Below, one piece after another: positions 9,604 through 36,424 of a stretch of 64,000 nt of DNA (its first letter is position 1; every line of letters starts with the position of its first letter). The translations under genes were made by a program, and so were the position numbers. Origin of the DNA: Phoronis australis. Lineage: Eukaryota; Animalia; Phoronida. The DNA lies in contig NMRA01000463.1 in the NCBI GenBank assembly GCA_002633005.1, positions 186,001 to 250,000 of the forward strand, given 5' to 3'. The notes beneath the pieces are model-generated. The model searched no databases. It was not told where the DNA came from and worked only from the letters and a program-made list of their open reading frames with translations.

Positions 9604-9917
9604 CGGAAGCAAAATTCAGACAAGATCAACGATGGGCTCAATTCTATCTCGACTGCCCTCCGCGTCCCGGCTGCAAAGAACTCACAGTGAAATTCAAACC
9701 TCATTTTCTTGCCAACACGGACCTTGACGTCGCAGTTCTAGAGTTAGACCTGGAATCACAGCAGTCATCCGGAGTCCTGGCTTTGCCAGAACCGATCAAA
9801 CGATTTAGAAAGTTAGACCACCACAAAAAGATCCAATTTTTCGGCCATCCCGCAGGAGACCTGAAAGTTTTCGACCCCCAGTGCACCATTGTTCCAGAAT
9901 CGGAAATAGAAAGGATT
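9604..9917 (+). pseudogene. Paralog 1 protease exon carrying catalytic Asp
   Basis: cacag acceptor, ATT|gtgagt donor; RWAQFYLD...DLDVAVLELD...FFGHPAGDLKVFDPQC. Confidence 0.85.
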
Positions 9918-11355
9918 GTGAGTAATATTGTTTTTTCCTGATTTCAAAAGCGCATATTCTTGATAAAAGTAAGTCATATTCGATCGGCAATACATTGTTC
10001 AAATAGTAACTTCTGTTTTCATCCCATAAGTTGAGTGCATCATGGCCATTTGGCATTGTTTTCTGTATTGTCCTCCAGGGACTACTTTCAACAGTTCCCC
10101 CATACTTGGTGACATGGAAAGTACAAGGGGTACTGAGATCAATGTCCATTCGACATCACTGGGTTGCTTGATCTCTTCAAAGTTTCTCAAAATAGTTTAA
10201 AGTGATGAAGTTAAAGCTGTATAATTAACAGTCAACATGGAATCAGGCCACACACCTAACATCTGATACTAAACTGGTAATAATACAAATCTTGTATTTT
10301 AAATTTAGTTGCTAAAATATTTCCATCTGCAACTCAAGGCGGCACCAGTTCCGAGTCTTCGGTAAATACATGTACAATGAAACAAAAAAGCAACGGCAAT
10401 TATACATTGAACTTGTAACATCTTTAAAAGTAATTAAATAACTAGAATATGTGCCTCGAACGAGCCCTCCATTTGGCGAAGTGGGCAAAAAGGTCCACCT
10501 GAGAGAACCGAAAAGTCCGAGCAAAGGCGCCAATGCACAATTCATAGCTCTGAACGTCGTATCCCGTCCTTTTTTAACCCCAAGGTTTTTGGTAGTATCA
10601 GTAAAAATTCGAGCCCCCTATATTTTAGGCTGGGTGCGTGCGTGGTCCGTACATGTAAGTGCTGACACATGATTTTATTGTAAATGTGTTTGACTATTAT
10701 ACAGTGCTGTAGTGCAGTAGGTATCACCTTGAGCACTGATTGTAACTTACAGTGCGTAAGCGCTACGTTCAAATGCCAAAAGGTGGTTGGCTGCGCCTGC
10801 GTGCGCTTATGCTCCACTACAGCACTGCTGTTATACTTTATTTTTTGCAATAATCATATTCCTTGGTCATTTCGGTATGCATCAATAAGTGACAACGATA
10901 TTAAAACATACATGTATCTGTCATTGTAATACTTCAAGTTCTTCTGTAAGACTAAGGGTGTGTAGTATTTCAATTGTGTCAGGTGATGGTGACAGCCACC
11001 CTGTTTACCAGAGTGAGTGCAATCACCATGTTTACCACTGGCGCCGTGCTTGCACCAAATTCAAATTTCTCGTTATGCCAAAAGAGCCACTTGAGGTTAT
11101 ACAATATCTTTCTAAACAATAATGTGACGGTTCATGCAACACATTTACCATCGAGTGTCGAGCTGTCCAGCAAATTTATTAACTTAGGTTCATGACCACC
11201 CACAGGACGCAAAATAACTGGGTTCCAGCTTAACAGTATGCTGCAGCTGACGTACTGGCTCCAGATAGGCCTAATACCAACCGAGTACATGTGTAAGTGA
11301 ACCTGTTCTTTAAAGAAGAAAACCTGATACACTGCTTTCTTTCACACTTTTCCAG

Positions 11356-11685
11356 TGTCCGGAGCTCTTGCAGTGGTCCTTTGAGACTTATGGCGAGAAC
11401 CGTTATCCAAAATTGCTGGATGAGGGCCGCGTACATTACAACACAAGTGAGGACTTTGGAAAAGGCACGTCAGGATGCCCGGGATTCATCATTGCCGAAG
11501 ACTACGAGGCGTCACTGGCTGTTATCCATGCATTTGCTTTTCCCGACAAACTCGTCTCGGTTGAAGGAATTCCGAACACGTGTCACTTTGAACAGGGAAT
11601 CCGCATTGAATGCGTGTACGATTGGCTGAAGGAGGTAGATCCAGAGATCTGCTCAGAAATCTTTCCTGACGGTAGGCCCTACTAG
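11356..11685 (+). pseudogene. Paralog 1 terminal protease exon carrying catalytic Ser
   Basis: ttttccag acceptor; YNTSEDFGKGTSGCPGF...HAFAFP...FEQGIRIE; ends in TAG at 11685. Confidence 0.85.
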
Positions 11686-14479: not shown

Positions 14480-16069
14480 TTGTGCTGCTGAGACGCCAAA
14501 ACTCAGACCAACTTATTACTTTGGCTGACGAAAATATACCCACCTATGACAACGCCAAATAATGAGAAAACCTAACTGAGTTACCCCAGACAACAGCACG
14601 TTTACGAATACTTTCCGCTGTCATAATCTCTTAAATGGCGTTTAATTCGATGTACAAAACGTCTCTTGAAGCTCTACTTTCGTGTCCAAGGCGTAAAGCA
14701 CCTCTAATTTTATGCACGGTAGTTTTGAACCGATTCATTGAAATAACTCATTATGGAAGGTGCCCGTTATCAGATCCAAATTTTTCTGGTGTTGTTCTCG
14801 ATGTTTGCGGTTGGTTTCGTAGTTGGTTTGATGGTGCAGAACCCAAAGAAAATGTCTGAAAATGAGAAGTCATAGTTGTCTTCCTAACATAAGCATACAT
14901 TTGTGTATCTGTACATGTATTTGCAAACTTTCATGCTAGTCCGCCAGGTTACTCAGAAGACAACAAAGGCAAAGCTGTATTCGGGTCTCTCTGAAGTCGT
15001 CATCTGACTGTTCTCTTGTTAAAGGATAATGCCACACAAAAACAACCTATTTTGTGTTAATTCAGATCGAGCAGTTCCACTAGATAACAGCAAGTACGGC
15101 TCTTTTACCCGATACCTGACGGCAGACGGAGATGTTGAAATAAACCAATGACGTCAGCGGTTCGAACGCAGTGTGTTCGTTTACTGGTGTCAGCTTATTG
15201 GTTTAATTCAGCGTTTTACACCAATGAATCAACAAAATTCGATGTAAACTCCTTACAAATACATCGAGTTATTGAATGTTTTATTTCACTGTTACGGATT
15301 TATAGGTATTGGAACCTACCGTAGCCTGCAAAGTTCGGTGGGCCAATTTACCAAGGTCAGTCTCGAGAGTTTGGGGTCTGTTCGGTGATAAGTTCTAATT
15401 ATTCGTCCGTGAATTACAGACAGGAGAGTAAAGCAGCTGTGTGCTGTAATTTTATACTTGCAACTTTTTAGTTCTAAACACACAAAAACACATGTTATCC
15501 CGGCAAGTGGCTCGGGACCCGATCAGGCCCGAAGAATACGGACTGAAGACATCACGAACATAAACCAACCAAAGTTAGAAACTAAACTTCCAGTTACGAA
15601 AAGACTACACTAGTGCGCCAAAGAAATATTGTGCATGTGATTATATCGGGGAATTATACGCGAAACTGCAAATCTACTTACGAGCTCGTCGGGGGCTTCG
15701 AAGTCAGGTTACCCTTCCACAGCAAAACCGTCAGGGCAAAAGTTGTACAGTAACAATGATTCGAATAACGTATATGACTATCTAAATAAAGATTCCCCTA
15801 ACATCTGACCATAGGATATGCAATCGAAATATTGTTTCACAACAGCTTTCTGTCGGCATACACTAAATTAGCTTGCGATCACACTGCCAAGGTGCCCAGT
15901 AAGTTAATATATTCTATCTTTGTTTCAGTTTTTTTATAAGCAATTTTGGTTAGAGTGAGAATAATTCATTTTGAAACAGAGCGCACAATAATAAACGTCA
16001 ACCGTAGCAACTCTCAACCCCAACTTAGACGAGGGCTCATCCAACGAAGACTTCACAGGTCGATCGTTA

Positions 16070-16381
16070 GGCGTCACAAGCTATCAGTTCTAACCGGAAT
16101 ACACTGATCAAGAAATACAAGAGAGACGCTATGAACGTGCATAGACAACGGAACATATGGATAGTTCCGAAAACCGTTTGAATGACTGGTCATGGTGTCG
16201 GTGTGCTAACTGCACGGTAATGAAAACAACTGACGCTTGCGTTTGCTGCCACGAAATTCCGCAAGTAAAACGCCTTCTTGGAGAAACGCAGATGTGTGTC
16301 ACGGAGCATCCTGATTTTGTACAGCTTCTAAACAGAGGTGTGCTTACGACGTTTTTGGGACTAGGGAAAAACACTGGCTAA
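16070..16381 (+). pseudogene. KolX / P2X7 cytoplasmic-domain-like Cys-rich protein remnant
   Basis: YQF*PEY...RLNDWSWCRCANCTVMKTTDACVCCHEIPQV...CVTEHPDF matches the WCxCxxC...CxCCxE...CITxHxxF pattern; upstream in-frame stops. Confidence 0.75.
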
Positions 16382-16569
16382 AACATCCTACACCCAGAGG
16401 ACCAAACAGAAGCCTAACGGACAAGTCAGTCATCAAACAGGTTATATAAAGAGACATGTTCTCCTGCCTTGAATTAATTGTAAATGTTTATGTTTACATG
16501 GCCAGGTACAATTCTGCATAATCAAAAGCTGAGTAACAAACGATCCACATTGTTTGTCTACTGCCTACC

Positions 16570-16868
16570 GAACGCACTAGGCACAGCATCTGACTTCAGC
16601 TTCTGTCTCTTTTTCTGCCGTGGCATGATCTGTTTGGTAACCCGGCATTCGATAATCAGTGAAATCACTGCAGACGAAGTGCCGGCCAAAGACACGGAGA
16701 AGTTTAACAGCATCATATGCTTATTATTACGGCGTACTTTTCATTCTTCACTACCGCGAACCACTTCCGAAGCATCGTGTGCTCTCGAGGAAATCTAAAA
16801 CACGATATATCCGCTTTCGTCGTAGCTTCATAGTTTGCACAAGCGGGAACGATACACCACTCCATATT
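16570..16868 (-). pseudogene. THAP zinc-finger remnant (N-terminus of Kolobok transposase)
   Basis: MEWCIVPACAN...FRFP...RKW, then after frameshifts RHF and LKSDAVPS: the C2CH and AVP hallmarks of THAP. Confidence 0.75.
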
Positions 16869-18386
16869 GGCACTCACTTGGCAGAAAACCACTGACGTCG
16901 CTGCGTCGTTTCTCACCTTCCTCACTGGTTAACGCGGCCCCTCAAGGCGAAGTAAGATCGACCGTATACGAGATGATGTGAATATAGACCGATTAAGACG
17001 GTAAAAATATTAAGAAATCGAGTGGCATTTCCCTTTAATTTTCACAAAGATCCTGCAAGGGGTTTACGAGATACATACCTTGATGAAAAAGTGGCAGTTG
17101 AGGTCACCACAGCAGTGGAATATATCAGAAAATCTACACGTACTTCAGTCTTTTTCATACCAGCACATCTGATTTCCTAATTTTGATGTAAGTCTGTCTA
17201 AGCATGAAGAACGCAGAACTGAGCAAACGTTGAAAATGTAATTGCCACTACGGGGTACAGTCAGGTGGTCAGAAATCATCCAAAATTATCAAATTCATGG
17301 GAAAACACATTGACAATCCATTAATATACTGTGTGGTGACAAAGTGGGCAGCCGTGAACGCAAAGAAAAACGACATTGTCAATATAGAGCGCCACAAGAG
17401 TAAGTCTGGATCCTCTGAAACTCAATGTCAACCGTGAACCGTGACCTTCTCAGCTGCAAAACACCTGTTATTGGTTTTAATTAGAAGTTTTACAAAGGTA
17501 CCAAATGATATTTGAGTTAAATCATTGCCAAATTTGCATTTTTGGTGTTTGTACCTACCACTTTGCATTGGTCATAATTTACACAGTTTTCAACATAAGT
17601 GGTCAAAACGTCAACGTTTTTATCAGTCAAAGGTTGTTTGCAACATGATACCCAATTTAGCAGTATTAATTTTGATTATGGGGATATTTGGATAATTAAA
17701 TGAATATGGAAAACTTTTTTGAGAAGTGTTTTGCATCTTGTGTAAACCTTCCAGTGTATCGCATGAAACTGTCCCCAGTAGACTCAACTAAGCTCTCTAA
17801 GTCTACCGAGTATCTTTAGGCTTGTGAAGAAAACGATTGTCCTTCCTTGCGTTTTTCGAGTCTCATTACCAAGCAAGTTTTTGTCAAGCTGTGCTGTCAC
17901 CGCATACATGTAGGTCACCCTCAATTTAAATATTACATTAAATAGGTGAATAAATACATGTAAGTACAATTAACTTTGATATAATTCTAAAGAGAAGTCA
18001 ACTTCGAATTCTCAATACATTTTCATTGCAATTCTGGTTTAGAAGAAACACGGTTTTTGGGCTTCAGTTTCATTCGTACCTGTCGATTATGGCAGAAAAA
18101 GAATTTGCAGATGCTATTGTCTGAGAAGAGCACTCTATCAATAACAAACTTTTCAACATATAGACCTATTAAGACTCGCGGTGGTTCATTTCAATGCAAG
18201 AGTTCTGTTTAAATGCAAACCCGCATCTTCCGCACGTAACGCGTAGTTTTAATGGAAATTCTTAATAGTTATAAATGAGATACTACATTTTCGTGTGGGT
18301 ACGACAAGACGGGCTAGAGTGATGATTCAACAATAACATGCACTATCCAATCGCGCGGTACCTACTATACCGAAATTGGTTTAGTT

Positions 18387-18396: not shown

Positions 18397-18780
18397 AATC
18401 AGCTTTACCGTAAGCGTAAGTGTTAGCCTCCGTGAGTCGCCAGAATGTAGTAAAAATTTACAGTCACGCAAGACTTCGCGAGATACGGTCATGGATTGCA
18501 AGCAAAAAACGTGATCATAGCAGCTACCTTTGTGCGGAAAGTCAACGCAGTATCTAACGTAGGTTTACCAGCAAGAGCACAGTCTTACCCAATCACGGAA
18601 CAGGCAACACAGAATCTACCGTGGGTTTACCAGCTTGGGCACAGTTTCGATATGGAACAAGAGTTTCATGGCCTGAGTTCATTGGTGTATTGAAAACCAA
18701 TGGCTTGCAATTCGTCTGCTATGTTCAAAACAACCTTCCTGGATTTTTCCAGCAGCTAACCACGGACCAACACAAGAATT

Positions 18781-18786
18781 ATGGAG
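18781..18786 (+). CDS. Candidate initiator micro-exon (Met-Glu) of the ankyrin-protease gene
   Basis: ATG GAG|gtaaat is a phase-0 donor that would join in frame to 20624, giving MEETPLHGAAK. No transcript support. Confidence 0.3.
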
Positions 18787-18831
18787 GTAAATTCACAATA
18801 AATATTACGATGGCGAACCCGTCCCCTGGAT

Positions 18832-18841: not shown

Positions 18842-20623
18842 ACAAAGGATTTAAGTCAGAGTACATATGTATCTACACAGTCCAAGTCATCTTTTTAATT
18901 TTATTAATGAACATGATTTCTATTTAAAGTGGAGTGTCAGTTATTTAAAAAGTAAATGATTTGTTTGGTTAATACCTGGGAGTAGTCCTAGGTTAATACA
19001 CAGGACAGGAACGCTGTTCAGGTGTTATTTGTGTCGAAGGGTATTTCCAATTGTGTCGTAACGATTAGTCAGTTAGTTATAGCCGATACTTGACCACGCA
19101 ACAATGGTTGTCACAATACCCATACACACTACTGAATAGTAGATATTTAAGGGGAGAAAAACACCGCTGCTAAGGAAATAGGCTAGACTCTGTGAATACA
19201 ACTCAATAAATGGGTCGCTGGACCACACGTTAATGCCCTCGTTGTGTTTGCATTGTACACCTATGACCTGTGCCTGTAAACATCTCCTTGCGACTCCTTA
19301 AAATAAATTCCGAGATCATAATTTGAGATCCCGACACTTCGGTTTTCATTTCTCAACAGGTTATAAAATATACTCATCAATATACACGTTCAGCGTCTGT
19401 TTCCTCGGGTTAAGAATGTTAAAATGTTCAAAGGAGTTTCCAAGGTTCTACGTTAACTGCTATTATGAACTCATCTGGGTGACAAAATATACAAATCCTC
19501 GGTTTCATACAGGTGTGCTTCAAAACTATTCTTAGTCGCAAGTTGTAGTAATCAACCTCTCAGTGTCGTTTAACAGCACCACTTAGTACACAACAGTCAA
19601 TCCATTTACAAGTGTCGTTTATACTGCCTTGGCTCACGCTTTATTCAAACACGTTCCATTCATTGTCCCAATGCATGTTTCACTCGACAAGTTTCTCTAT
19701 CCAATCACTGTGTGTGGACTCGCCAGATCACAAAATACAAAATTATTAAAATAATTCGAACGGACGCTCTAGAATTTCAAGGTGAACCACCCAAAATATA
19801 TTTTGCTTCATTGACGATCATGTAGTGCGTTTTATATAACGTGGATGTTTCAAGTCAAATCTGCACGCAGCTTTAAGGTTCTACAAATTCTTATTTATCA
19901 ACCGGTTTCGAGTCCAAATGTTACATCTGGTCTACCAGGGCTATTTATGGAGAATTTTTATTGTCTTAAGTACGACTGGCTTATCCGGTTCCACAAGAGA
20001 CAGGTGTGAGTCGGCATATGTCTCCAACTCGAAACCAAAGACAGAAATCCGTAGTATGCTGGGGAAAAAAGTCAACGCCAAAAATCATTTTTGGTTATGT
20101 GCTGTTTGAGAAACAGGTCCCTGAATTTCAGTCGCAGTTGGCACCAGTTATATAATTAATAAAATTACTCCATAGGCAATCCAAAACACTGAATAAGCTA
20201 TGGCTCATTTCCGTCATAAATACTTTTTACGCAATTAATGCTGCAAACTCACATTGTGGAAAAACTTAAAAACCGCAAGAAGTATCCCGAGTTAAAGCAA
20301 ATGTCTAAATCCATGGCCACGGGAATGTCCTTGGATGGCAAATTTTAGAAATCGAGGTTTCAACTGAATACAGTGGGGCCGAATTCTCGCTGAACCCTGC
20401 CAATCGACGACTCCTTTGTCGAGTGAGAATCGAAGCATGTACTATATGTAGGTCGAGTTCAATATCTGTCTCGCGGCAAGTACGTGCTTTTGTTGAAAAT
20501 GGTCTGCAAATTTTAGAGGAATCTCGTGAGATGGCCTAATTCTAGCCAGACTCTAGCATTATTCAACTCGAGCCTGATGGTAAAGCTACGACATCGTTAA
20601 ATTGTTTGAAACATGTCTTGCAG

Positions 20624-20719
20624 GAGACTCCCCTTCATGGTGCGGCAAAATTGGGTCATGTTGAAGAAGTGGAGTTTCTGGTATTGCAGGACCATTGTCA
20701 AATTTCTGCAGTTGATCAG
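20624..20719 (+). CDS. Ankyrin repeat exon 1
   Basis: ttgcag|ETPLHGAAKLGHVEEVEFLVLQDHCQISAVDQ|gtattt; 96 nt, phase 0-0. Confidence 0.9.
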
Positions 20720-23700
20720 GTATTTTTTTCGTATATCAATATCAAAATATCAAATAGTGAAACGTTCTTTGTATGCACCACTGTGTACGGTAGCGAAGAC
20801 TGCGACTTTCCTTAAAAAAGGTTATCGAATTCAGTTATCTCTGAAAATTGATCGAGACTCAGAGGCGAAACAGGCGTAGTCGAGCTACCCAATTGATTTA
20901 TTCTCTCTTTTGGTGTTATTTCATATTATATCAGCTTTGATGTACATGTAGGGCAGTCGACAGGTTATGATCAAACCTTGAGGCGCATACCAGAGTGCAG
21001 GTGCGTATAAACATTTGGGGCGTTGTGTCGAGTCAGTATACAGTTGAACCTATTTGATCTAGAATAACTACCGTTGTTAGTATGTGAGTAGATGCAAAAC
21101 AAGGTAACACCATGAACAGAGACGGGGGCGCCTACAGACTCTGCCGTAGTAGCTTCCAAGCGAAACCTAGCGGTAAGACATGAGAACGATGTAACCATGG
21201 TATCTGAGAAGCCGAAATTTTCTGGAGTTATTTTCAATTAATCTGTGGATGTAAAGCATAAAATTTATTTACTCAAATATCGGATATCATGCTAAACATA
21301 TTTACAACTTTTGCTATGTATTGTAACCACATTACCCGTCCCAATTTTTTCTCACAAATGTTGACACTATTGCGTTATATTAGCCACTCAAATTGTTATT
21401 TTACTGTGGTTGTTACTAAGCTACAGTATAATGACATAAAATAGAAACCGGCAATAGTCACTTGCAAGGGTCCTGGGTTTTGAAAATCAATTTGATGCTC
21501 ATTACCCAGTAGCGAAAACAGGTTCTCAAACCACGAGACCCAAACAGGTTCTTAAACCACGAGACCCAAACAGGTTTTCAATTCACGAGACCCAGACAGG
21601 TTCTCCAACCACGAGACTCAAACAGGTTCTCAAACAACGAGACCCAAACAGGTTCTCAAACCACGAGACCCAAACACGTTCTCAAACCACGAGACACAAA
21701 CAGGTTCTCAAACCACGAGACCCAAACAGGTTCTCAAACCACGATACCCCTGTAAATGGCCATTGCCCACACGTATCAAGTCGCCCAATTGCTCACATTT
21801 GGAAAATGTGCAGGTATATGAACGTACAGTGTATGCACTGAATTGTAGCAGCTTTATCACAGCTTACTGGTATAAACATTACACCTTCCATATCAATTCT
21901 GATGCAGTGGTAGTTGTCTTTACTCAACTCCCTGCAGTACAGCTGGGTTTCTTTCTCTATCTGAACGTTATTGGAACCACGGTAAAAGTATGAAATATGC
22001 GCAATGACTTGTGGGTATTATTTGCAAAACGAGTCATTTGAACGCTGTTTACATAGTTCTCCTTTTACCTCGCAAATTAGCAGTTAGTACTTCAGAAAAA
22101 CCTAAATTTACAGCTAAAGTCATATTCTCACAGTATCGAAATACACAGTGCTATCTTGTGCTCGTCTCTTGATTTTAGTAAGCATTTACAGTGTAGTTTG
22201 TCAACCGTAAACATGTGACTCAGTGTCTGCATCCACTCAACAACCAAAATTGTCGTTCATTTGTAAATCATTTGTTTTGCTAATTCGATATTTTCCGAGG
22301 ACATCATCAATTTCAAGCACTGAGTTTGGTTTATGTTCATGATCTTCCTATGCAATCAGTATCCTGTTTGTTACTGTACGCAGGATGGCCAGACTCCGCT
22401 CCTCCTGGCGGCTGTTAACGGACACACTGACGTCGTGACTGTTCTTTTACATCATGATGCAAGCATCTCAGCAACTGATAAGGTATTTGCAGTTTGTTAC
22501 TGATAATGAGATACTGCACAAACGTGGGGTTGACTTTTGCTGAATTTTGCGAATACACTGCGTAATCCGAAGGTTTTTCAGTTGAAATTTTCGAGTTTAC
22601 TTAACAAATGAAATTTTGGAGATTTCTTGGCTAAGTAGCTTTTGCACAGGAAGTGAGCTGAAATTTTGCGATACCCTCATTTGAAAATTCCTTATAATAA
22701 AAGGGGCTATTCTGACAAGCAGCTGTGCTTGACGTGAGAAATATTCTTTACTTCAGCACTCGCTCATACAAATCTATTAAATTCGGAGTGAGAAGGAACA
22801 TGATTGTTATGTGAAAGCTACATCTCCAAGGTCTTGCAAAAGGAGCAAAACTACAGACAGCAGTGGACTTCATAGCCAGTCGGAAATCATAACTGAACCA
22901 CCATACACGGAGAAATGCAGTGTTGTGTTCCTAAAATTATTAATACACTCTGTAGAAAAAAAAATCATTGATTTTTTACGCGCCCAAAAATTGCATGGAA
23001 CATTGCCGAGGCTATTCTGGGTCTCTTTTGCGAAAAAAACGTGCATTTGCGGTCATCTCGACAAATATTCTGGGCATCGGCTCATTCATGTATTCCACTT
23101 TAGATATCTGGATGTCCCGTTTTTTTAAAGCAGGCGTCCCGTTCGTTTGATTGCTAAAGTTGGCTACTGCGCATGTGTGTTTAATGTTCCGTTTGATATA
23201 CATGTAGGATGGCTTCACAGCATTACATCTTGCCTCGTATTGCGGCTGGATTACGACAGTGAAGACACTGCTCCTTAACAAGTCAAACGTGGCAGCTGTT
23301 GATAAGGTAATGTTCACACATGTATTCACGTGCTGTGTCATGACGTTTCCTGTCATTCTCCTAGAAAATACAAGTTTTCAGCGAGGTTAAGTCCGCAATT
23401 TCTGTCAACACGTGTTTTGAATTAGAAAACCAACCGTTATGTAATTCATCTCAAATTTTTGCTTAGCTGGTCCCAGAAGGAACTTTTGTTTGAAGTTTGT
23501 TATTTTTTAGTTTTCAAGCCAAACTTTGTCTGAAAGTACAACGCTGTTGATAAGGTATTATTTATGTACACGTGCTGTATCTTGAATAGAAATGACGGTT
23601 CCTCTCACTTTACCCGCAACTGCAAGTTTGCAGGGATGTTAAGTCAGCAAATCTGTCAAAACGATTTTTTCAAGCCAAACTTGGTCAGCAAATGCAAAAG

Positions 23701-24923
23701 ACTGTGAGTTTTTCCGAACCACATCTTAACTGGGGAAGGAACAAGGCAGTGTCATTTTTACGGTATTTTTCATTGATCTAAATCGAACCTAGTGTTATTA
23801 GAATATATGGCGGGTTTAATGCTGCTTGAATCGACGTGCATTTGAAAAAGAAGCTGTGACATCTAGTTGGCATAACTCCGCCGAGGATCAGATTAAATTT
23901 GAATTGCGTATGGATAAAATAAAGATGCTGCCTTATCATTAAAGTGCGCTGCATGAAAACCAGAGTCTCAAATGTTTTAACACATATCTAACCATATTTA
24001 CACGTCTGGTCTTCATTTTGATACTTTTTCTATGACGGAGTATGCTTTCTTACAGTACCAGCGATCAGCACTTCACCTAGCTGCTCTTGAGGGCCATGTT
24101 GCTATCGCTAAGCTTCTGGTACAATTTGGTGCTGCTGTGTCAGCGGTTGACAAGGTGAGACGTTGATCATCACACGAGAGCCTAAAATACACCCTGAGCC
24201 GACACATCTAGAAGGTGTGGTTACATTGGTTGAGGCAGTTAACATGATGAGATCACTAACATGTTTGTTATACCCAGTGATACGATTCTTAAAATAGCGT
24301 CTTTTGACACTGAACAGAACTTCCACTAGATGTCGCACCTTATGCTAGTACCTAACCAGCATTCATATAATCACATTATCGATTCTACAGTTGTCTTAAG
24401 TTGCTTCTCACCAACAAACATGTCAAAAAGAAGATCCTTTACACAACCTATGTTTAAATATTACATGTTTTTATAATTTGAATTCAGCCGAACCCTCATT
24501 TGTGACAAATATATGTTTGGAGTAACGTACTTTGAGTCGTCATTTTCTTGTAAAATTTGATTTGGTGCAGGCTTTATACTCGAAACGAGCTACACGTAGT
24601 TTCATTGTTGTATTTTATTAAAGCAAGTGGGTGTAAACCTGTATTAAAAGTTCGCATAGTACAGAAAATATTATGTTATATTATATGATATTACGTTGGC
24701 TGGTTGACAAGTCACGCTTCCAACAAAAAACTACAAAGGTGTAAACGTTTATTAAAAGTTCGCATAGTATGTGAAATATTACAATATGTGTTGCTTTCTC
24801 TGGTTGACCAGTCGTGCTTCCAAGAACAGATTACAGAGATATACCGGTACTTTCATGAACACTTCCATGCGTGCAGGCAGGGGGCAGGCAGGAGGCAGAC
24901 AGTCAGGCAGGCAGGCAGGCTGG

Positions 24924-24990
<67 letters not shown>

Positions 24991-24998
24991 ANNNNNNN

Positions 24999-25053
<55 letters not shown>

Positions 25054-28000
25054 TATATAAATATAATATTCATGCACCTATATTGACATGTGTCTAATAT
25101 CTTGCAGGATGGCGAAACACCATTACATCGAGCTTCACGGTTAACTCGTATACAAGTAGTGGAACTACTTATAAACCACCGAGCTGATGTGTTGGCTGTT
25201 AACAAGGTATTTGAATATTACAATGCTTCCGACAAGTAACCTTCTAAGATAAACTGGCTAGACTGTTTGCCGGAAGTCATTATCTATAAGTAATTAACTG
25301 CCTTATCAGCTATTATTTTACGTAATTCTCTGCTCTTAATGGGATTCTGTGAAGGTAAAATTCCGTTCCACTAAGTTAGCTTTTAATACAATCGTTATGT
25401 ATCATGGCATTGAAACGTCAGGGTCGTACATTTTGTATAACAGTATTTAGCATTTATTCTGTATCTTTATATTCTTTAGCTTTTATGCATATCCTTAGTG
25501 ATATGACAGTAAGAAAACGGTGTATCTCATGCCTAATCCAGGGAGAACGGTTAAAAGAAGGTTTCCCATTAGCTGTCACGTTGGTAGATAGGGTATTATT
25601 AAACAGTCAAATGTTGAAAGCCTTATCATTTACGCACCACCACCATGAGGAGACGTCGCACTGTAAGAAGGTAAATCCGTCGTCTCTGCAGATAATAAGA
25701 TGGGATATCAGACGTCTGTCAACCGTACTCATGTGATTTTTCGAAATCAGGTCAGATATCTGATTTGACTTGTGTTCGAAGAGAGTGTGGTGGGTATTTT
25801 AATCTCTATTGTAGGATGGGAAAACCCCCTACGAAGTATGTGGTCATGTGGAGTTTTGGGAACGACATTTCGTAATTGACGACGAAATAAAAGTCAACGC
25901 AACAAAGAATCTCATCCAGGTACACGCATTGAACTGAGTACATATTACTAAATGTATTTTGACTGAATTATAATTGTTTATTTTTTATTTTCTTGACCAG
26001 CTTTGCTACCAAACAAGGTCACTACACAACTTGTATCAAGTTGTCGAGCCAACTGAATTTGCTGTGTTTACGTCTTATGCAATAGGTGTTTACTTCCTTG
26101 CAAACCGATAGGCTCCAGCTGATTACAACCTTATTGTCGTTGCTGTCGAAAAAACTTCAGCTGTAATACAGGTATAAAGACCGACGCGATAACAAATAGC
26201 ATTGCCATAGCATTTCAGGAGGACCTTAACTGGAACTGAATTGGTCCACTATAATGTATAAAGCAGCACGTGAGGTTAGCTTCATTTGCTGTTGGAACGT
26301 AGAAGGATATTGATTTCAAAGTGTAGAGCCGAAACGGAGTACATGAAGGGTGTATGTTCAATTTATTTGGATTCCAGGAGGAACTAGAACGACTGAAGCA
26401 GGAAGCGAAGAGTGAATTGGCTGATGCGATAGCAAAGTATGCGAGATTTGTACCGCCTCAACAGGCCCAGACAGAGCATTCTGTATCGTTCACATGGGTG
26501 CCTGCACAAAGCAACGTCAAGGACGAGATAAAGGATATCCACATTGGAACTGGTGAGCACAACGTTAATTCCGTGTCGGTGATATGTGCAACTTAAGATG
26601 GCCACTTCATTACAGAGCCACTCAAAGCAGTGAACGTTCATAAGACCGTAAATCTGTATACATAAATTGGTACCAGTCACCTAAAACGAATGAAACTGAA
26701 ACTTCTTTCCTTGTTTTCTTTTGGTGATAAAAGATTATCGGAGTTCTTTTACGAGGTCTGTCTGATACCTCCGTAAAATCAAGACTCTGGCACTTGCCGT
26801 CTAAATACCGACCGATATCATTTTGATCAGTTAACCCTTGAAATAAGGAGTGCACTCAAATAGCTTGAAACAAAGTTAAGAAGCGTGCACGTTTGAAAGA
26901 AATGCGTGCGGATTCGCCTTCTTCAAGTTTTGTTGAAACTTTCAGTGTGAATGCGATGCTGTGAATGCATTAAAATAGAAAAACCCAAGGTTCCGATATT
27001 GTTTTGCATTATGTTAGTGCAGATTTTTCGTCATCTTGGTCAGTTAACAAAAGCGTACAATTAATAGTTAGTTACGTCCCCCAATTCTCATTCCTAGGAT
27101 CACTGGCAAGTTACTAAAAATTTCTAGCATTTGTGATTAATTCAGTTTTGATGGTCTCAAAAACTTTAAATTATCGAGCCCGAGTGTTTTATAGTCTCGA
27201 GTGTTTTCTCTTTCCCAGGTTTTCTCGAGATTTTACTCAAGAATTAGCTGTGGTCTCGGTTTCCTGAGTACTACTCGGAAAATTGACAATAACTCAGGAT
27301 TTCAAGATTTTTTGTTCAATACAGCCTGCTCATATCGGGTACCAGCTGTAGTGCACTCTCTCTCTGCGGAAAATCAACCTCATGACGGTTTAGACATTTT
27401 CTTGAATATATGGTATTTATTCAGTAAACGTTAATGTACAATGTGTACTTCAAAACTTTTGATCGATCCCGAAAAGGATGTCAAAGCATACAAGCCGAGG
27501 GAGAGCAACATCGTTCGAGTAGAATAGCCAGGGGCACTATTGCTCGCCCGAATTTTATACGTTCTGATATATCAGAAGTTTCAGTCTATATTTTATTATT
27601 ACACGACTACTGATTCTTCTTTCCTTCATCTCAAATGTCAGCTCAACTTTTTACTACCTTCTCCCATTAATAAACATCATCTACGCGCTTTTAAGTTAAG
27701 CAGTACCTGATTGGTCAGTTCGCAAATAACGGCGTGAATAAAATGAAATTAATTGTTGAACATTACAGTTCCGTCCACGTTTGCCCAACTGACGTCAGTC
27801 CTGAACGGTGGGCCACAGCGACAAGTTGACAAAGAAGCCGGGAAGACATATGCGACCTTTATCGATTCTCTCAACGCTTCGTCTTCAGCTGTGGCCAAAA
27901 TAGTTTGGTCGAATAGCTTAGCTGGAACGGGATGGCTTGTTGGTACAGGCCAAAGAAAGTTCTTGGTAACAAACTACCATATTATCTACGAGATGCCTCC

Positions 28001-29771
28001 AGCTAACCAAGGTAAACTCCAACGTCATGTTTCCAACCCAAAAAAATTCGCATGTTACGGTTGAAAGTTCAGCAGTAAAGACAAGTCTCACAATTGAGTT
28101 TGAGTAGTTATACAAAGCCCTGCCTCATGAGCTCTGAAACGATATTCTCGTCCGATCATCTAACCAACTGGTTTTGCTAATTTTCATCCTCAGGTTAACG
28201 CATCAGCAACCTATATTGTTTGACATGGAATTCTTTGTTGATTTTTTATTTGGTAAGTCGAAACGGTCAGCATTTGAGGCAAAGAATAGTTGAGAATACC
28301 CACCGCCATTAATTTGGTTTCATCGACTTCCTTACTCTGTCAGATAAAAAGCGATTTATCCGAATCCAAACGTGTCACTGTTCGCTATGTGTTGAAGTAA
28401 CCTTCGGTGCATCAATTGACCTGGCATAACGAGGCATATTTGCGAACCCAAAACAAAACATGTCTAAATCCTGATACCTACACTAAATAAAAATTATGAC
28501 CAATTTAATAAAGATATGCGTTTCTGTTTCTGTTTCTGTGGTGACGTCAGAGGGTAGGCACCGGGATAGTCTCTGGCCCTCCTCCTTCCAGTATCACACT
28601 TAATGTAAATTTGGAAATGCAACCAAGTTCGTGCTGGTTACACACTCTTCGATCTTTTCCCCTGATACGAGTTTTTGCTGCATCTCCGTATTGCCATCCT
28701 CGCTCTATGAGGCGCTTTGTTGCCCATCTCTCCTGCTGTTGTACAATCTGTAAGCGATTCATGTGGTTTTAATTAAAAACTGTTTTCGCGATGCTTTCAC
28801 AACCCTGTTTTTCCATTACCTAACGCGCCCAATTCTTGCATTAATAGCACACCAATGGGCCCGAAAACAACACCGATGGGCACAGTTCTATTTCGATCGC
28901 CCGTACCAACCGGGAGATAGCTCACTCAGCGTCGGGATCACTGACCCATTCCTGATAGACTCAGAACTTGATGTCGCTCTGCTGGAATTGGATCTGACCA
29001 ATGTAGAATCTAGCACGGTACAGAATTTACCTGCACCCATAACCCGATTCCGGATGTTGAAAGACGGCAATGAGACGCTCCACTTCATCGGTCATCCAGG
29101 AGGCAACCCAAAAGTGTTCGACGTCCAATGCAAAACTATACCTGCTGAACAAATTTTGAGAATGGTGAGTAGCCCTAAATACTGTCTTATGGCAATTGTT
29201 GCTGGTGACATTTGAAAAAAAAAAAATTGGCGGCATACATGTAGAAAGAAAATTCTAATCTAGTTCCGAAATGTCAGCCGCCCAAGGTTCCATTTTTTCG
29301 TGGGAGACCGATTTAGACATTTGCCACGGACTTCTACGTTTATATACTTTTAATAAAAAACCTTGACATGCTTCCGTAAAAGGTAAGTTGCCAAGCTGTA
29401 TTCCACTAATCAATTTACACTTTCAGCATCTGCACCTTCTGGAGTGGTCCTTCGAAAATTTCAACTCCGACAAATACCCTAAAGTCACCGACGAACGTCG
29501 GATACTCTACAACACCAGCGCAGACTTTGGACCAGGCACGTCTGGTTGCCCTGGATTTGTCATGGACGAAGATTACCTGGCGTCTCTCGCTGTCACTCAC
29601 GCATTCGCTTTCCCGGACGTCCCAAATCCTCCTCACGGAATGCCAGAGGAATACCACTTCGAACAAGGCATACGCATTGAGCACGTGTACGATTTAATAC
29701 GAAGCCTCGACGAAGACATATGCTCAGAAATATTCACACAGGGACGTCCATACCCAGTAGATCTCTACTGA
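20624..29771 (+). CDS. Ankyrin-repeat + FAM111-like serine protease (10 exons, at least 558 aa, 5' end unresolved)
   Basis: Exons 20624-20719, 22384-22482, 23208-23306, 24056-24154, 25108-25206, 25815-25919, 26378-26552, 27769-28011, 28848-29164 and 29427-29771 are all AG/GT, phase-compatible and sum to 1677 nt without an internal stop. His 27978, Asp 28970, Ser 29541. Confidence 0.88.
21450..21767. repeat. Intronic MITE-like element containing a 26-bp minisatellite (about 9 copies, 21519-21750)
   Basis: Unit caggttctcaaaccacgagacccaaa; flanked by imperfect inverted ends ggcaatagtcacttgcaaggg / cccctgtaaatggccattgcc. Confidence 0.8.
22384..22482 (+). CDS. Ankyrin repeat exon 2
   Basis: cgcag|DGQTPLLLAAVNGHTDVVTVLLHHDASISATDK|gtattt; 99 nt. 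Confidence 0.92.
23208..23306 (+). CDS. Ankyrin repeat exon 3
   Basis: tgtag|DGFTALHLASYCGWITTVKTLLLNKSNVAAVDK|gtaatg; 99 nt. Confidence 0.92.
24056..24154 (+). CDS. Ankyrin repeat exon 4
   Basis: ttacag|YQRSALHLAALEGHVAIAKLLVQFGAAVSAVDK|gtgaga; 99 nt. Confidence 0.92.
24872..25050. repeat. Compound microsatellite (GGCA)n followed by (AT)n, split by a short N run
   Basis: Directly visible. Confidence 0.97.
25108..25206 (+). CDS. Ankyrin repeat exon 5
   Basis: ttgcag|DGETPLHRASRLTRIQVVELLINHRADVLAVNK|gtattt; 99 nt. Confidence 0.92.
25815..25919 (+). CDS. Degenerate C-capping ankyrin exon
   Basis: ttgtag|DGKTPYEVCGHVEFWERHFVIDDEIKVNATKNLIQ|gtacac; 105 nt, phase 0-0. Confidence 0.85.
26378..26552 (+). 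CDS. Helical linker exon
   Basis: ttccag|EELERLKQEAKSELADAIAKYARF...|gtgagc; homologous to 8619-8787. Confidence 0.85.
26692..26703 (+). promoter_or_regulatory. Intronic ISRE/IRF-like motif GAAACTGAAACT
   Basis: Matches GAAANNGAAACT. Motif match only. Confidence 0.25.
27769..28011 (+). CDS. Protease exon with catalytic His
   Basis: ttacag acceptor; AVAKIVWSNSLAGTGWLVGTGQRKFLVTNYHII; G|gtaaac donor. Confidence 0.9.
28848..29164 (+). CDS. Protease exon with catalytic Asp
   Basis: aatag acceptor; DSELDVALLELD...FIGHPGGNPKVFDVQC; ATG|gtgagt donor. Confidence 0.9.
29427..29771 (+). CDS. Terminal protease exon with catalytic Ser
   Basis: tttcag acceptor; YNTSADFGPGTSGCPGF...THAFAFP...FEQGIRIEHVYDLI; TGA stop. 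Confidence 0.9.
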   Translation, partial: HLHLLEWSFENFNSDKYPKVTDERRILYNTSADFGPGTSGCPGFVMDEDYLASLAVTHAFAFPDVPNPPHGMPEEYHFEQGIRIEHVYDLIRSLDEDICSEIFTQGRPYPVDLY

Positions 29772-30699
29772 TTATGATCACCGGAACATATTTTCGAGTA
29801 GACAGAAGTATGCTACATGTATATTCCAGGCGACTGAGGCTGAAATGAATTGATTGCAACATGTGTGTACTTTGCGGTGAACAGTCCCTTTCAGGGACGT
29901 TATTGGAAATGTTTTTCACACAACTGCCTATTACTTTGACATGGCCAATGCGTGAACACATTCACTATACTGGACTTGGAGTTTTAAATGTTAACATGCT
30001 GATGTCTTTGATGACATTTGTATTTATAGGATACAGGCGTTACTGCGTGAAACAATTTGGGCGTGAACATTCATTTTTTGCACAAACATATGTTATTTGC
30101 ATTTGCAGTGTGAAAACTTGTTTTTTTAACACCCTCTGAACACAATGCGCGTGATCAATGGTATTGTCTGCTTGTCTCCAAGCCAAATTTCGTAGCAAAT
30201 TTAGTTATTGCAATTAATAGATAATTTTCACCTCGGGTTTTGCCTTTTCATAACTAACATTACAATCATTCTTGTCTTTAACGAGAACATCGCAATCCTA
30301 CATGTAACATTCGACCCCTTTTCTGAATTTTCACGTAAGCCGAATTGCACAACCTTCTAAGTTATTTACTCACACCTCTTCGTACGACCGTGTTTCATGT
30401 GTTTTCATTTGGATGTCATCGTCGTATTTCAGAATATAAACTGCTTTTGATTGATCGCTGCACATAGCAGCATGTTTTAAAATGTCTTTTTTGTAAACAG
30501 ACAGTTTTTCTGTACACATGTAATAACACTCATGTATTGAACATTCCAATTCTTTAATATATTTTATATTTTTTGTTTCATTTCTATTCCGATACTGATT
30601 CATCAACCAGCTTGCGCTCTTTGTTCGGGCATGGGTTAGTCACCCTTTTAAAAGTTATGATCTGATACATTTGCTAGACCCGAGATTGGCGTTTAACAT

Positions 30700-32160
30700 G
30701 GCTAAATTTCAAACTATTTTTTTCTATTTGGTGTACGTTAAAAATTACGATGGGTGTCGTGACTATTATCCAGGCCTCTAAATTTGTTAGAGATAAAGGT
30801 CTCTGGCGATTTAACAAATCCTTATTACGTGATGTAGAATACATTAGTAATGTGAAAGACATCATAGCTGAAACAGGTAAGGAAAATTTAACTCCTGATA
30901 ATGACTCCAATTTGTCAGAGGGTCAATCGACTATCGACGACTCTCTTCTTCTTGAGACGATTCTGTTGAATATTAGAAAGATTAGTATACTTTGTGTTAT
31001 TCAGCTTTCAAGAAAAAAAAGAAAATCATCGACATGAGAAGAATTTAGAGGAGCAATTAATTCTTAGGGAAAATATGTGCAACAATAATTCTGCTCCGCT
31101 CCTTGAAATTTATTCAGATTTGCAGAAAGATTACGAATAAGTTAGAAAGAACAAAGTGAAAGGCATGATGCTGTGATCTCGGGCAAAATTGATCGAGGAT
31201 TTTGAAAAACCGTCCAGATATTTTGGTAACTTAGAAAAACGCACTTACGTGAAAAGAATGTTTACAAATTTATAGACGACACTGGACAAATCTTGACAAA
31301 CCAAAAAGCTATACTGTGTGCAATCGAAAAATTCTATGCAAATTTATATGCAGCCAAAGCAAATGACTGTCTCCCATACATGTATGAATTTAAGAGGCAT
31401 TATCTGAGAAAACCTGCAGAGGTCGGCGGAGGCATGTTAAAATTCATGGATTTTGTCAATGGGGTTTTATTAAGGATACCAAACAATAAAATAAAAAGTT
31501 ATTTTAAAAATCAAAAAAATGTTTTTGTATGGATTACAGCACATCCAATATTCCCATGTATTCCAATAGGGAAATGGGTAGTAAGTGTGGAATTTCAAAA
31601 GGCTTTTATTAGAAAGTAGTTCCTAACTATTTAAAGTGAGATATTTTTTTCTACCAAAATAAGGTAAATTAANAGAAAGATTACGAATAAATTAGAAAGA
31701 TCAAAGTGAAAGGCATGATGCTGAGATCTCGGGCAAAATGGATCGAGGATTTTGAAAAACCGTCCAGATATTTTGGTAACTTAGAAAAACGCACTTACGT
31801 GAAAAAGAATGTTTACAAATTTATAGACGACACTGGACAAATCTTGACAAACCAAAAAGCTATACTGTGTGCAATCGAAAAATTCTATGCAAATTTATAT
31901 GCAGCCAAAGCAAATGACTGTCTCCCATATGAATTAACAGGCTTGCTGGCCCCTGAAGACATATCAGAACTAGTCGCCGACTTGAAAGAAAACTTAAAAG
32001 GACCAACAACATGTACAAAGGCCGCGACTGTATTTAAATGTATGAAAATGACAAAACTCCGGGGACTGATGATTTTCTTGTAAAGTTTTACAAATGTTTT
32101 TTGGAAAGAATTGTCGCCAGTTTTGATCAAATCTTTTAATTACCACTTTCATTCTGCTAG
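30700..32160 (+). mobile_element. Degraded Tx1/L1-clade non-LTR retrotransposon ORF2 fragment
   Basis: GLWRFNKSLL, KGMMLRSRAKWIEDFEKPSRYFGNLEKR, AIEKFYANLY and a frameshifted PG.D...FYKCFWKEL are typical of the endonuclease-to-RT linker. Confidence 0.85.
31394..31672. mobile_element. Left end of an element inserted at TTAA in the Tx1 remnant, truncated by an N
   Basis: One copy reads ...gaatTTAAgaggcattatctg where the duplicate reads ...gaaTTAAcaggc. A TTAA target and purine-purine start suggest Kolobok. Confidence 0.45.
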
Positions 32161-32793
32161 CTGGGAGGCTATATAACCTAGGGGCTGCCGCGACAGTGTG
32201 ACACAGGACCAGCCCGTAAATTTTTTGCAAATGTCTGAAATTACCTTTGTGTGAATACGGCATTCACGATTTGAAAGTTTTACTTCAACAAAAAAGCTTG
32301 CAACCCCATTCCTTTACCGTTCGCCAGTGTCTAATACCTTGTGATCCGAAAGTTAAAGTTCTATGAATAGACATTGATACCAATTCAACTTTTGACTCCC
32401 ATATTTCGGACATTTTCAAAAAAGCCTCACAGCAACACGTTATACGAAGAATTGGACACCACCTTACGATAAACGGCAGACTTGCCATTTTTCACTGCTT
32501 CATTCTTTCAAATTTCAACTACTGCTCCCTCTCATGACATTTTTGGTCGAAAGAAAATACACTCAAACTAGAAAAACTTCAACTCAGAGCCCTCCGTTTT
32601 GTTTACAATGACGACGTTATCACGCACGTTCAACTACTCTCACTAGCTAACAAACCACCTCTTCATCTACACAGAGTTCGACTAATTGCTGTAGAAGTAC
32701 CTAAAATTCTTTTTGACGAATCACTCCAAGACGCTTCTTTCACTTTTAAAGGAGGAAGAAAACAGTTACTCCTTTCGTTACAGCAAACTTTAA

Positions 32794-35700
32794 AGGAGCA
32801 TGCCACCCAAAAACAACCTAATTTGTATCAATTTAGATTGAGTAGTTCTACTCCATAACGACACGTACGGTTGCGTTACCTGACACCTGACGGCAGACGG
32901 AGATGTTGAAATTATCCAATGACGTCTTCGGTTTCACACGCAGTCTGTTCAACAGTTCACAACACGGGTTACTGGTGTCAGCTTATCGCTTGAAGTCATC
33001 GTATAACGCCAATAAATCATCAAACTTCGGTCTAAATCCCTTAAAAATACGACAAGTCCTATAAAAACGTGTTGTTTTATTTCGCTCTTACGGATTTATT
33101 GGTATTTGGACACACCGCAGCCTACAAAGTTCGGCAGGCCAATAAGGTCCGTAGCAGGAGTTTGGCCTGTTCGGAGATAATTTCGAAGTATTATCCGTGA
33201 GATACAGACAGGAGAACCTAGATCTGTGTTGTTTAGACTTGTGATTTTTTGAGTTCTAAACACAAAACGCTTGTTATCCTGGCCAGTGGCTCGGAGCCCG
33301 ATCAGGCCCGTCGCGGCCGGCCGGACCGGCCGGCCGCGACGGGGCAGTTAAATTTTGACGTCGACAATATATACGTGTCATTTGAAGTAGTAGCCCGTTG
33401 TAGGGGGCCACGACCAAAAATATGGTTACACATCACATGTTTAACCACAAAAAAAAACAAGTGAAAGAGTTACTTTTTCAGGTAAGCGACGCGTTGCGCG
33501 CTTTGGTTGTTTTTGTCCGCTTTAGGAGGCAAGTGGCGCTTTTTTCTTTCACGATTTCGCTGAGGTACGTTTCAGAAAATCGTACTGTAGGCCTAAGTCA
33601 TTTTTTCTGTGCCAGTTAATCTTGGTACACAGCAACTGAAAAAACGGATAAATCACGTCATTTTAAATGTCCATATCGCTCCGTTATGGCCACTTCGACT
33701 TGGATGGATTTTGGCTCATTCAAACACTCCATTATGCTCTATTTTTTGAAGTTCGTAAACGAAAACGCGTACCAGGATGTAAAGTTCGTGCCCTCCCCCT
33801 CGAGTTTTAGTTGCCAATTTTGACATGAAGATGATGGTGATATTTATGCGTTCCTTGACGAGAATTCCAGCAAGTCAAGTTTTGCCTAATTCAGCTTTTC
33901 ATTCATTTTTGTACCGTGTATGGTCGCTGGCAAAATACGATACCATCAAGATTTTAGTCTACAGTGTAGATGTTTCCTAACTCGGTTTTTGGCCATAACA
34001 CTAGTTATAGGAATCTGATTATGAGCGCGCAAGAGAAGATGGAACGTATTTGCGACGTTTCGTTTACTCAAAGTTAATGAGCCTAAACGTCAGAAAATAT
34101 TTGTTTTCTCTTTCTCGCTTATAATGATTTTCAAGGGTTTTCGTTATTCAATTTCGGCAAGGNNNNNNNNNNNNNNNNNNNNNNNNNNNNNNNNNNNNNN
34201 NNNNNNNNNNNNNNNNNNNNNNNNNNNNNNNNNNNNNNNNNNNNNNNNNNNNNNNNNNNNNNNNNNNNNNNNNNNNNNNNNNNNNNNNNNNNNNNNNNNN
34301 NNNNNNNNNNNNNNNNNNNNNNNNNNNNNNNNNNNNNNNNNNNNNNNNNNNNNNNNNNNNNNNNNNNNNNNNNNNNNNNNNNNNNNNNNNNNNNNNNNNN
34401 NNNNNNNNNNNNNNNNNNNNNNNNNNNNNNNNNNNNNNNNNNNNNNNNNNNNNNNNNNNNNNNNNNNNNNNNNNNNNNNNNNNNNNNNNNNNNNNNNNNN
34501 NNNNNNNNNNNNNNNNNNNNNNNNNNNNNNNNNNNNNNNNNNNNNNNNNNNNNNNNNNNNNNNNNNNNNNNNNNNNNNNNNNNNNNNNNNNNNNNNNNNN
34601 NGTGAGGCTCGTGGTCCGTTACAAATTCAGGCTGTCGGATCTTTCAATTGATAAATTGGAGACGTTAGAACTGTAGGTAAGGGCATTTTTCGCATGTAGT
34701 TCGATGGGCTGGGCGCTTACTTTAGCAAAGTCTGAAAACGCGTTGGGACACTTGTTGAGCCATGGGCGCTAATTAGGGCGAATAGCGGCAGAATTACATA
34801 CAGCAGCGTAGTTTAATGCACACAAATTACACGTCGTGCAAACCAGTCGGCCATCCCGTTTACCATCAACAATCCCAGTAGCCTTTGCGCACCCTAATTT
34901 CCGGACATGCGCAATCGTTAAATCGATTCGGTTGCAACTCCGCTATTACGCACTTATTTGCTCTCCGTTTTAACGTTGATCATCGTCTATACACCTCCAA
35001 AAATGGCACATCGTCTTTGCGCAAACTATATTGAGATTTAAGTCTCCCGAAAAAAGTTGACGATCGGATAGTGTTTAAAAGTCTAATTCTAAATTTCTCC
35101 AGTTAGTGCACAAATGAAGTAAAAGAAAGTAGTTCTGCTTGTCGCGTCTGCGGTTGGTATCATTATCTCGATTTATGACCCACAACGCGTGACTGGACAA
35201 AGCCTTTTCAAATTAGCCGGTGGGGCGTGAGACCCCTGAGGTCCCAATCGAGTCCTCCCGACAACTCCGCGTTATGGGATTGATTTGTTATCCCAGTGGC
35301 TCGGAAACTGATCAGAAATTACGAACAAAAACAATCCAAAGTTCACTGGACTGAACTAAACTACCAGTCAAGAAAATATTATACTAGTGAGCCAAAGTAA
35401 TGTGCACGTGGTTATGCTGGTGAATTAGCCACGAAACTGCAGATCTACTTACCCGTCGGGGGCTGCGAATTCAGGTTCCGCTTTGGCCACAGCACTGTCA
35501 GGGCAGAAGTTGTATATTGACAATCATTATTTGAGTAATGTAATTGTAAATAAAGATTCCCCTAACACCTGGCCGTGGGATGGAAATCGAGTTTTTTCTC
35601 AACAGTTTCTGACAGCAAAACACTAATTAGCATGAGCTCACACGGCCTCGGTGTCACGTCAATTAGTTTTATTGCACCTGGCCTAAAGCTGGTAACGCAG

Positions 35701-36424
35701 TGATTTATTCATTGCTGCATGGCTTCTCAAATCATTTGCACTTACGAACACTACAAAGACATTACAAATTGCATCTAATGAGACGGACTTTGTTTCAGTT
35801 TCATATAAGAATTGTTTAGGATGAGAATAATTCATTTTGAAACAGAACGCTCAGTAATAAGCGCCAACATGGCAACTCGCAATCCTGACTTAGGACGAGC
35901 TAGAGCTCATCAGTCCCGACTTCGCAGGTGGATCGTTAAGTTTTACAGGCAATCAATTCGAACAGGAATACAGTGATGAAGAGAGGCGCCGTGAACAAGC
36001 TCAGACAACGGAACGTATGGAGTTATTTTGTAAGCCGGTATTCGTCAGTCAGGCTGTCGACGTCTACAGGCCACAGTCACGGAGATGTTTCACGGCCTCA
36101 TACTTGCTATTTACAGCGCACGTTTCATTCTTCACTACCATGAACCACTGCCTAAGCATTTCGGACTCTCGAAGAATTAGAAAAACGATATACACGCTTT
36201 CCTCGCAGCTGCTTAGTTCGCCGGACAAGCGGGAACGATGCACCGCAACATAGCGGCATTCACTCTGCATATGAGCAACTGACGTCTCAAGCATCGTTTC
36301 TCACCTTCCTCACAGGTTAACGCGACACCTCTTGGCAAGGTAAGGTCCACCATATGAGAGGCGATGTGGATTAAAACCGATTAAGACGGCAAACAAGACT
36401 AATTAAATCGGGTGGCAATCTCTT
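32794..36424. mobile_element. Second copy (or two partial copies) of the Kolobok family seen at 15023-17034
   Basis: TTAA-aggagcatgccacc ... ggtggcaatctctt-TTAA. 32794-33310 resembles 15023-15530 and 35287-36424 resembles 15494-17034 with deletions. Interrupted by other sequence and an N gap. Confidence 0.75.
34163..34601. other. Assembly gap
   Basis: Run of N. Confidence 0.99.

Follow-up and report, generated by a model that had tools for sequence, protein, structure and literature searches.

We analysed a 64,000-nucleotide stretch of the Phoronis australis genome (assembly GCA_002633005.1, contig NMRA01000463.1, positions 186,001 to 250,000; hereafter the window), a piece of low-GC (~38%), gene-poor animal DNA that carries a candidate gene joining ankyrin repeats to a protease of the FAM111 type. 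The gene model comprises ten exons between 20624 and 29771 (+), bounded by AG acceptors and GT donors, whose splicing yields an open reading frame of 558 codons followed by TGA, with no internal stop. The ankyrin, linker and protease exons follow one another in order, in phase and with canonical splice sites. Because the exons were picked by eye, their fit in phase is not by itself an independent test of the model. An earlier note, made from the sequence alone, had proposed these phase-compatible exons and pointed to the junctions 25919/26378 and 26552/27769; both junctions proved exact, and the frame reads through as it had claimed.

The first five exons encode one ankyrin repeat each, all in phase 0: repeat 1 at 20624–20719 (+, Pfam Ank 24.8 bits), repeat 2 at 22384–22482 (+, 37.5 bits), repeat 3 at 23208–23306 (+, 29.4 bits), repeat 4 at 24056–24154 (+, 33.7 bits) and repeat 5 at 25108–25206 (+, 34.2 bits). 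All five (5/5) exceed the Pfam Ank gathering score of 21.1, and their pairwise protein identity is 16–41%. Exon 6 (25815–25919, +), which has no Pfam match, encodes a half repeat or cap leading into the linker helix. A profile of exons 1–5, searched against 2876 six-frame segments of the window, detected no further stretch resembling an ankyrin repeat, the next best having an E value (E) of 0.73. An assembly gap of 7 N at 24992–24998, in intron 4 between repeats 4 and 5, could conceal more ankyrin exons, so five is the minimum repeat count; owing to the same gap, repeats 1–4 are joined to the rest of the gene via scaffolding. Repeat 5, the linker and the protease exons lie in a single gap-free stretch. 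Additionally, 23543–23669 is a degenerate copy (71%) of 23295–23418, the segment in which exon 3 passes into its intron, and retains a sign that single exons of the array have been duplicated in tandem. Intron 1 holds a 26-base minisatellite in 9 copies (21516–21749), and GCAG and AT microsatellites (24873–25069) flank the assembly gap in intron 4.

The linker is encoded by exon 7 (26378–26552, +). A helix is predicted for its first 22 residues only (residues 2–22), the rest is not confidently folded, and no PDB entry matched it under E 0.8. The earlier description of five ankyrin repeats, a cap and a helical linker thus stands for the repeats and the half repeat of exon 6, and for the linker as far as this first segment. 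In a Pfam search of the exons, no ubiquitin-like domain appeared at E up to 1, and a PIP box was absent from the Pfam matches, no dedicated PIP motif scan having been made. Downstream of the gene, an exon scan found no convincing extra coding exon within the window.

At its 5′ end the gene model has no start codon, and the best start candidate is a 34-base exon at 18753–18786 (+), which has an in-frame stop followed by ATG GAG and a phase-0 donor GT. Overlapping this candidate exon is an open frame of ~75 codons (18552–18787, +) that ends in phase 1 at the 18786 donor; a search for an exon bridging this phase-1 frame gave six weak candidates, none convincing. The highest 19-residue hydropathy is 1.5 and falls within an ankyrin repeat, and there is no IVGG-type start. 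The absence of a signal peptide and of an IVGG site, as asserted in the earlier note, holds for the sequence as assembled, with a first exon that is itself a prediction. Since neither feature is seen, the protease is probably intracellular.

The protease spans three exons: exon 8 (27769–28011, +) encodes its start with the catalytic His codon at 27978–27980, exon 9 (28848–29164, +) its middle with the catalytic Asp codon at 28970–28972, and exon 10 (29427–29771, +) its end and the stop, with the catalytic Ser codon at 29541–29543. Direct comparison with Pfam was weak, exon 9 reaching Trypsin_2 at just E 0.2. A profile of exon 10, built from the gene and a tandem paralog in the window, was run against 1.84 billion representatives and retrieved 7 proteins (E 3e-9 to 5e-4), which are 26–31% identical to the spliced protein; two of them score above the Pfam Trypsin_2 cut-off, three below it, and two are short fragments without a match. 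A profile search of long proteins, covering 913–2605 residues, gave 2 matches among 4085 candidates. Word-indexed protein searches with exon 10 alone and exon 9 alone found no match, which is weak evidence, and 171 pattern matches in metagenome contigs left 0 confirmed.

Against a profile of nine relatives, exons 8-9-10 in genomic order align as one domain, covering 253 positions (13–265 of 269) at 107.5 bits, with His328, Asp380 and Ser483 in the triad columns of those relatives that pass Pfam Trypsin_2. The other five orders of the three exons split into pieces, and 200 shuffles peak at 3.9 bits. As exon 10 had seeded the search for relatives, only exons 8 and 9 count as independent support in this collinearity test. 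The motifs TNYH, ELDVA, GTSG, IGHP, THAFAF and FEQG are all found in the sequence. These results uphold the trypsin-fold protease with an intact triad that the earlier note had proposed.

The kinship with FAM111, also claimed there, is supported by profile comparison with solved structures. A profile of the 7 relatives matched human FAM111A (8S9L, 8S9K) at E 2.7e-12, the next match being at 0.16; when the window exons were added, FAM111A was matched at E 1.9e-14, with the next at 0.11. FAM111A is the sole solved structure under E 0.1 for the relatives' profiles. One relative alone (P0002) matched it at E 0.0018; the predicted structure of this relative is poor (AlphaFold pLDDT 51), and a fold search with it still ranked FAM111A first to fifth, with a best E of 0.011. 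The pair of exon 9 sequences from the gene and its paralog gave a single, weak PDB match, again FAM111A (E 0.29). By alignment count, the positions of the S1-region residues His556, Phe560 and Glu573 of FAM111A (numbering of PMC10920703) are retained. Phe537/Phe538 of FAM111A are Gly/Pro here, and an Asp lies six residues ahead of the catalytic Ser. A helix-like segment at about residues 284–299 precedes the first protease strand.

The alternative that the protease is a separate Trypsin_2 lineage, for example NAL1-like or bacterial-derived, merely resembling FAM111A, has to be weighed against this kinship. Direct scores of the window exons to FAM111A are weak or nil: exon 9 alone, exon 10 alone and the exon 10 pair did not find it in the PDB, and the kinship is transitive, passing through relatives of 26–31% identity. 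Language-model look-alikes were mostly bacterial trypsin-like fragments. In a tree of nine rows (both window genes and 7 of the 9 relatives, with the short fragments P0004 and P0005 left out and neither FAM111A nor an outgroup included), the branch leading to the window genes is very long. These points count against FAM111 membership. On the other side, FAM111A, at 1e-12 to 1e-14, was the one protease that PDB profile searches returned under E 0.1, with neither NAL1 nor HtrA below that value, and the FAM111A match runs over ~200 positions, the C-terminal helix pair included. We consider a separate lineage very improbable.

Three known protease types were tried and rejected. For a NAL1-type protease, there was no Pfam Nal1 match at E up to 1 in 13 exons and 9 relatives, and no NAL1 match in the PDB at E up to 10. 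For HtrA/DegP (S1C), there is no PDZ match, the gene stops after the protease domain, and no HtrA is among the PDB matches. A secreted S1A trypsin is at odds with the lack of IVGG and of a visible signal peptide (in an N-terminus that is a prediction) and with just three Cys in the protease domain (433, 485 and 543). Sequence comparison thus gives good support to placing the protease with FAM111A and not with NAL1, HtrA or secreted trypsins. Judged by its architecture, the protein is not a vertebrate-type FAM111A ortholog.

A tandem paralog lies at 8619–11685 (+), with exons 8619–8787, 9182–9424, 9604–9917 and 11356–11685. It repeats exons 7–10 of the ankyrin-linked gene with identical intron positions and phases, at 48% identity and with the triad retained, which bears out the exon boundaries of this part of the model; the linker exon 7 and the paralog's first exon share 27% identity. 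The paralog carries a premature TAG at 9346–9348, where the ankyrin-linked gene has Trp. Over 351 codons, the identity between the two genes is 0.64/0.68/0.40 by codon position, a pattern of prolonged selection at the protein level; the stop is therefore of recent origin, allelic or erroneous.

We next consider whether the ankyrin and protease exons form one gene. By leave-one-out scoring, all nine donors (9/9) rank within the top 0.3–8% of GT sites in the window. The exon 6 donor (25919) is in the top 8% and the exon 7 acceptor (26378) in the top 0.5%, and because of this last rank exon 7 looks internal; the acceptors of exons 8 and 9 are weak, at 41% and 22%. Upstream of exon 7, just one known exon offers a phase-0 donor, 458 bases away. 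The 458-base intron, the fit in phase and the helix pattern running across the junction all favour the joining of exons 6 and 7.

RNA was drawn from three raw-read runs (~18–19% of each) and one contig set, chosen by species label. Coverage of the gene stays under a depth of 2, with low steady expression in the three runs, and read bases were computed from bin depths. In run X3, the candidate start exon has 222 read bases in its 634-base bin, the exon 1 bin 108 read bases against 96 exon bases, and the exon 2 bin 101 against 99. In the same run, exon 5 has 70 and 25 read bases against 72 and 27 exon bases, followed by 51 in the next bin, consistent with one 150-base read over exons 5 and 6. 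In run X1, 19, 184 and 101 bases are consistent with one read pair over exons 7 and 8. The first mate is on the minus strand in all these reads; library strandedness is not on record. In stranded libraries, a first mate on the minus strand usually means RNA of the plus strand. Across the three runs, the RNA lands on bins with exons of both halves, on a single strand, and arithmetic on these bins places low-level transcription on both halves. Introns show some noise, with 133 bases at 19474–20107 and further reads in the minisatellite bin, and reads from a repeat of intron 8 overwhelm the bin in which exon 9 begins. This short repeat (28520–28750) has high RNA depth on both strands with loose ends and is single copy in the window.

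Several observations weigh against a single ankyrin–protease gene and could instead indicate two adjacent genes, a small ankyrin protein (exons 1–6) and an independent FAM111-like protease whose start would be the in-frame ATG at 26354. No RNA joint above the listing threshold was seen for any predicted intron, none spans 25919/26378, and exons 3 and 4 have 0 RNA coverage. In-frame ATGs precede the linker exon in both paralogs, 24 bases before exon 7 and 12 before its counterpart, a feature shared by 3 of 12 other exons as background. The 8.6 kb of the window upstream of the paralog contains no ankyrin exon, nor did an exon scan pick out any other convincing one there. Given these ATGs and a paralog without ankyrin exons, an ankyrin-free start is possible. 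The relative P0002, at 270 residues, likewise has no additional domain, and ankyrin repeats occur in 0 of the 9 relatives, of which only three have a long N-terminal part and six have no more than 270 residues.

Two separate genes would, however, have just 458 bases for a 3′ end, a promoter and a start, where gene spacing is measured in kilobases, and the strengths of the 26378 acceptor and the 25919 donor speak against them. Exon 6 left unspliced meets a stop after five further codons, and the helix pattern runs on across the junction. The absence of AATAAA/ATTAAA from intron 6 is uninformative because none follows exon 10 either. We regard two genes as quite unlikely; the ankyrin and protease exons very probably belong to one transcript and one gene. 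The single ankyrin–protease transcript of the earlier note is accordingly likely from splice sites and phase, and the RNA check of 25919/26378 gave it no spanning read.

Relatives of the protease carry different N-terminal modules. P0008, which is Mercenaria mercenaria LOC128549418, has Roc, COR-A and Trypsin_2 above the Pfam cut-off, with the protease at the C-terminus. In P0009 (1050 residues) the protease is preceded by a P-loop region with weak Pfam matches only, and in P0001 the N-terminal half is of low complexity and matches no Pfam domain. No other ankyrin fusion was found, proteins of 300–900 residues having been searched only by the two-sequence exon 10 profile (7 matches). The relatives' protease domains match a bacterial defence reverse transcriptase (RT)-protease model weakly (E 1e-6 to 1e-3), single exons of the window do not match this model, and NCBIfam gave nothing useful. 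Together, these sequences suggest that the FAM111 protease domain is exchangeable, being linked to ankyrin repeats here, to Roc-COR in the clam and to two ubiquitin-like domains in vertebrates. The varied N-terminal modules, along with tandem duplication and loss, point to the FAM111 protease as an effector module.

On this basis, we propose that the gene encodes a FAM111-type protease, very likely as one protein with five ankyrin repeats, which is likely switched on or aimed inside the cell by whatever partner the repeats bind; we put the probability of this reading at roughly 55%. FAM111A is chymotrypsin-like and intracellular, and its dimerisation via the first helix of the protease domain orders the oxyanion hole (PMC10920703). 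By analogy with that account, the phoronid protease would be weak as a monomer and would become ordered when it dimerises via the helix that precedes its first strand. The ankyrin array might bind a multivalent host or pathogen protein, so that protease domains are clustered or delivered to a substrate, and the linker helix would couple array and protease. Gating by a ligand or pathogen may occur, with the Roc-COR-fused relative as circumstantial support. The output could be cell-autonomous defence, as with FAM111A against SV40 and poxvirus mutants, a possibility to which we give somewhat less than an even chance. SV40 is restricted by the protease activity of FAM111A, which large T antigen blocks (PMC13640560), as does poxvirus SPI-1 (PMC11847056).

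A single gene could also serve a plainer purpose, the array being a simple substrate or location adaptor of a protease with a housekeeping or stress function (in protein quality control, at chromatin or in removing DNA-protein obstacles) and with no sensing or immune role. The other documented role of FAM111A, at replication forks (PMC9798293, PMC10920703), fits such a function, as does the low steady expression in three RNA runs. The array is also short and its exons are old, as their divergence shows, unlike a recently diversified receptor array. Speaking against an adaptor, Pfam gave no PIP box or ubiquitin-like domain. Moreover, tandem duplication with one copy lost is more characteristic of conflict genes, and so is the exchange of N-terminal modules among relatives. 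For invertebrate conflict proteins, it has been proposed that ankyrins serve as modules recognising invaders (PMC8195603). We consider a plain adaptor rather unlikely and favour the partner-controlled protease.

More tentatively, and with odds clearly short of even, FAM111-type proteases may be an old, exchangeable executioner of animal cell-autonomous immunity, bolted to varied sensors and relying on dimerisation-gated cutting, as do caspases and the trypsins of bacterial defence; the FAM111A of vertebrates, which has ubiquitin-like domains and acts at replication forks, would be one derived case. PMC9798293 names as open questions how FAM111A is activated, what its substrates are and which of its roles, the antiviral one or that in replication, is the older. 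The invertebrate ankyrin and Roc-COR versions amount to a natural domain-swap experiment for FAM111A. If they are gated N-terminally and dimerise like FAM111A, the ancestral role was most likely that of a sensor-coupled effector protease, and a branch of invertebrate immunity that has received little study would then be open to testing.

Elsewhere in the window, two decayed copies (74–77%) of a repeat element (15019–17038, 32790–33310 and 35307–36428) attract heavy RNA matches from other copies. A Cys-rich frame at 16181–16348 has a weak transposase match only (E 0.02). The broken, partly duplicated frames at 30678–32083 gave no useful Pfam match and by eye resemble a LINE ORF2 remnant.

No published description of an ankyrin-FAM111 or Roc-FAM111 fusion was found in the literature covered; UniProt and InterPro architecture tables and subscription papers lay outside this scope, and automated annotations may exist. 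The Roco-protease architecture (Roc-COR with a FAM111-like protease) was likewise not found there. Human FAM111A (8S9K, 8S9L) resembles the phoronid protein in its C-terminal Trypsin_2/S1 domain, the His-Asp-Ser triad, the S1-region His/Phe/Glu and an apparently intracellular location. It differs in having a PIP box and two ubiquitin-like domains where five ankyrin repeats and a linker stand here, and Phe-Phe before the oxyanion glycine where Gly-Pro stands here; the phoronid protease is moreover divided over three exons. The PIP box of FAM111A is reported to be mammal-specific (PMC9798293). FAM111A-like proteases without ubiquitin-like domains are reported from soft coral (UniProt A0A7D9LSX1) and lancelet (A0A6P4ZC58) in the same paper, which names no replacement domain and whose main text does not contain the word "ankyrin". 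Compared by description, these are invertebrate FAM111-type proteases lacking ubiquitin-like domains, as is the protein studied here.

The clam protein LOC128549418, itself uncharacterised, shares with it a C-terminal protease of the same family after a signalling module, which is a Roc-COR GTPase in the clam and an ankyrin array here. Trypsin-like proteases of bacterial defence systems (Hachiman, AVAST, Lamassu and DRT; PMC12799240) are likewise fused to other modules, and oligomerisation-gated activation has been proposed for them in that paper, which does not mention FAM111, animals or ankyrin. Their kinship with the phoronid protease is distant and at the level of the fold only, and here there is neither a nuclease partner nor an operon. 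In RNase L the effector is non-homologous, a nuclease with a pseudokinase and 2-5A as ligand, and the likeness lies in the arrangement: an ankyrin array, of nine repeats in RNase L, placed ahead of an effector that requires dimerisation.

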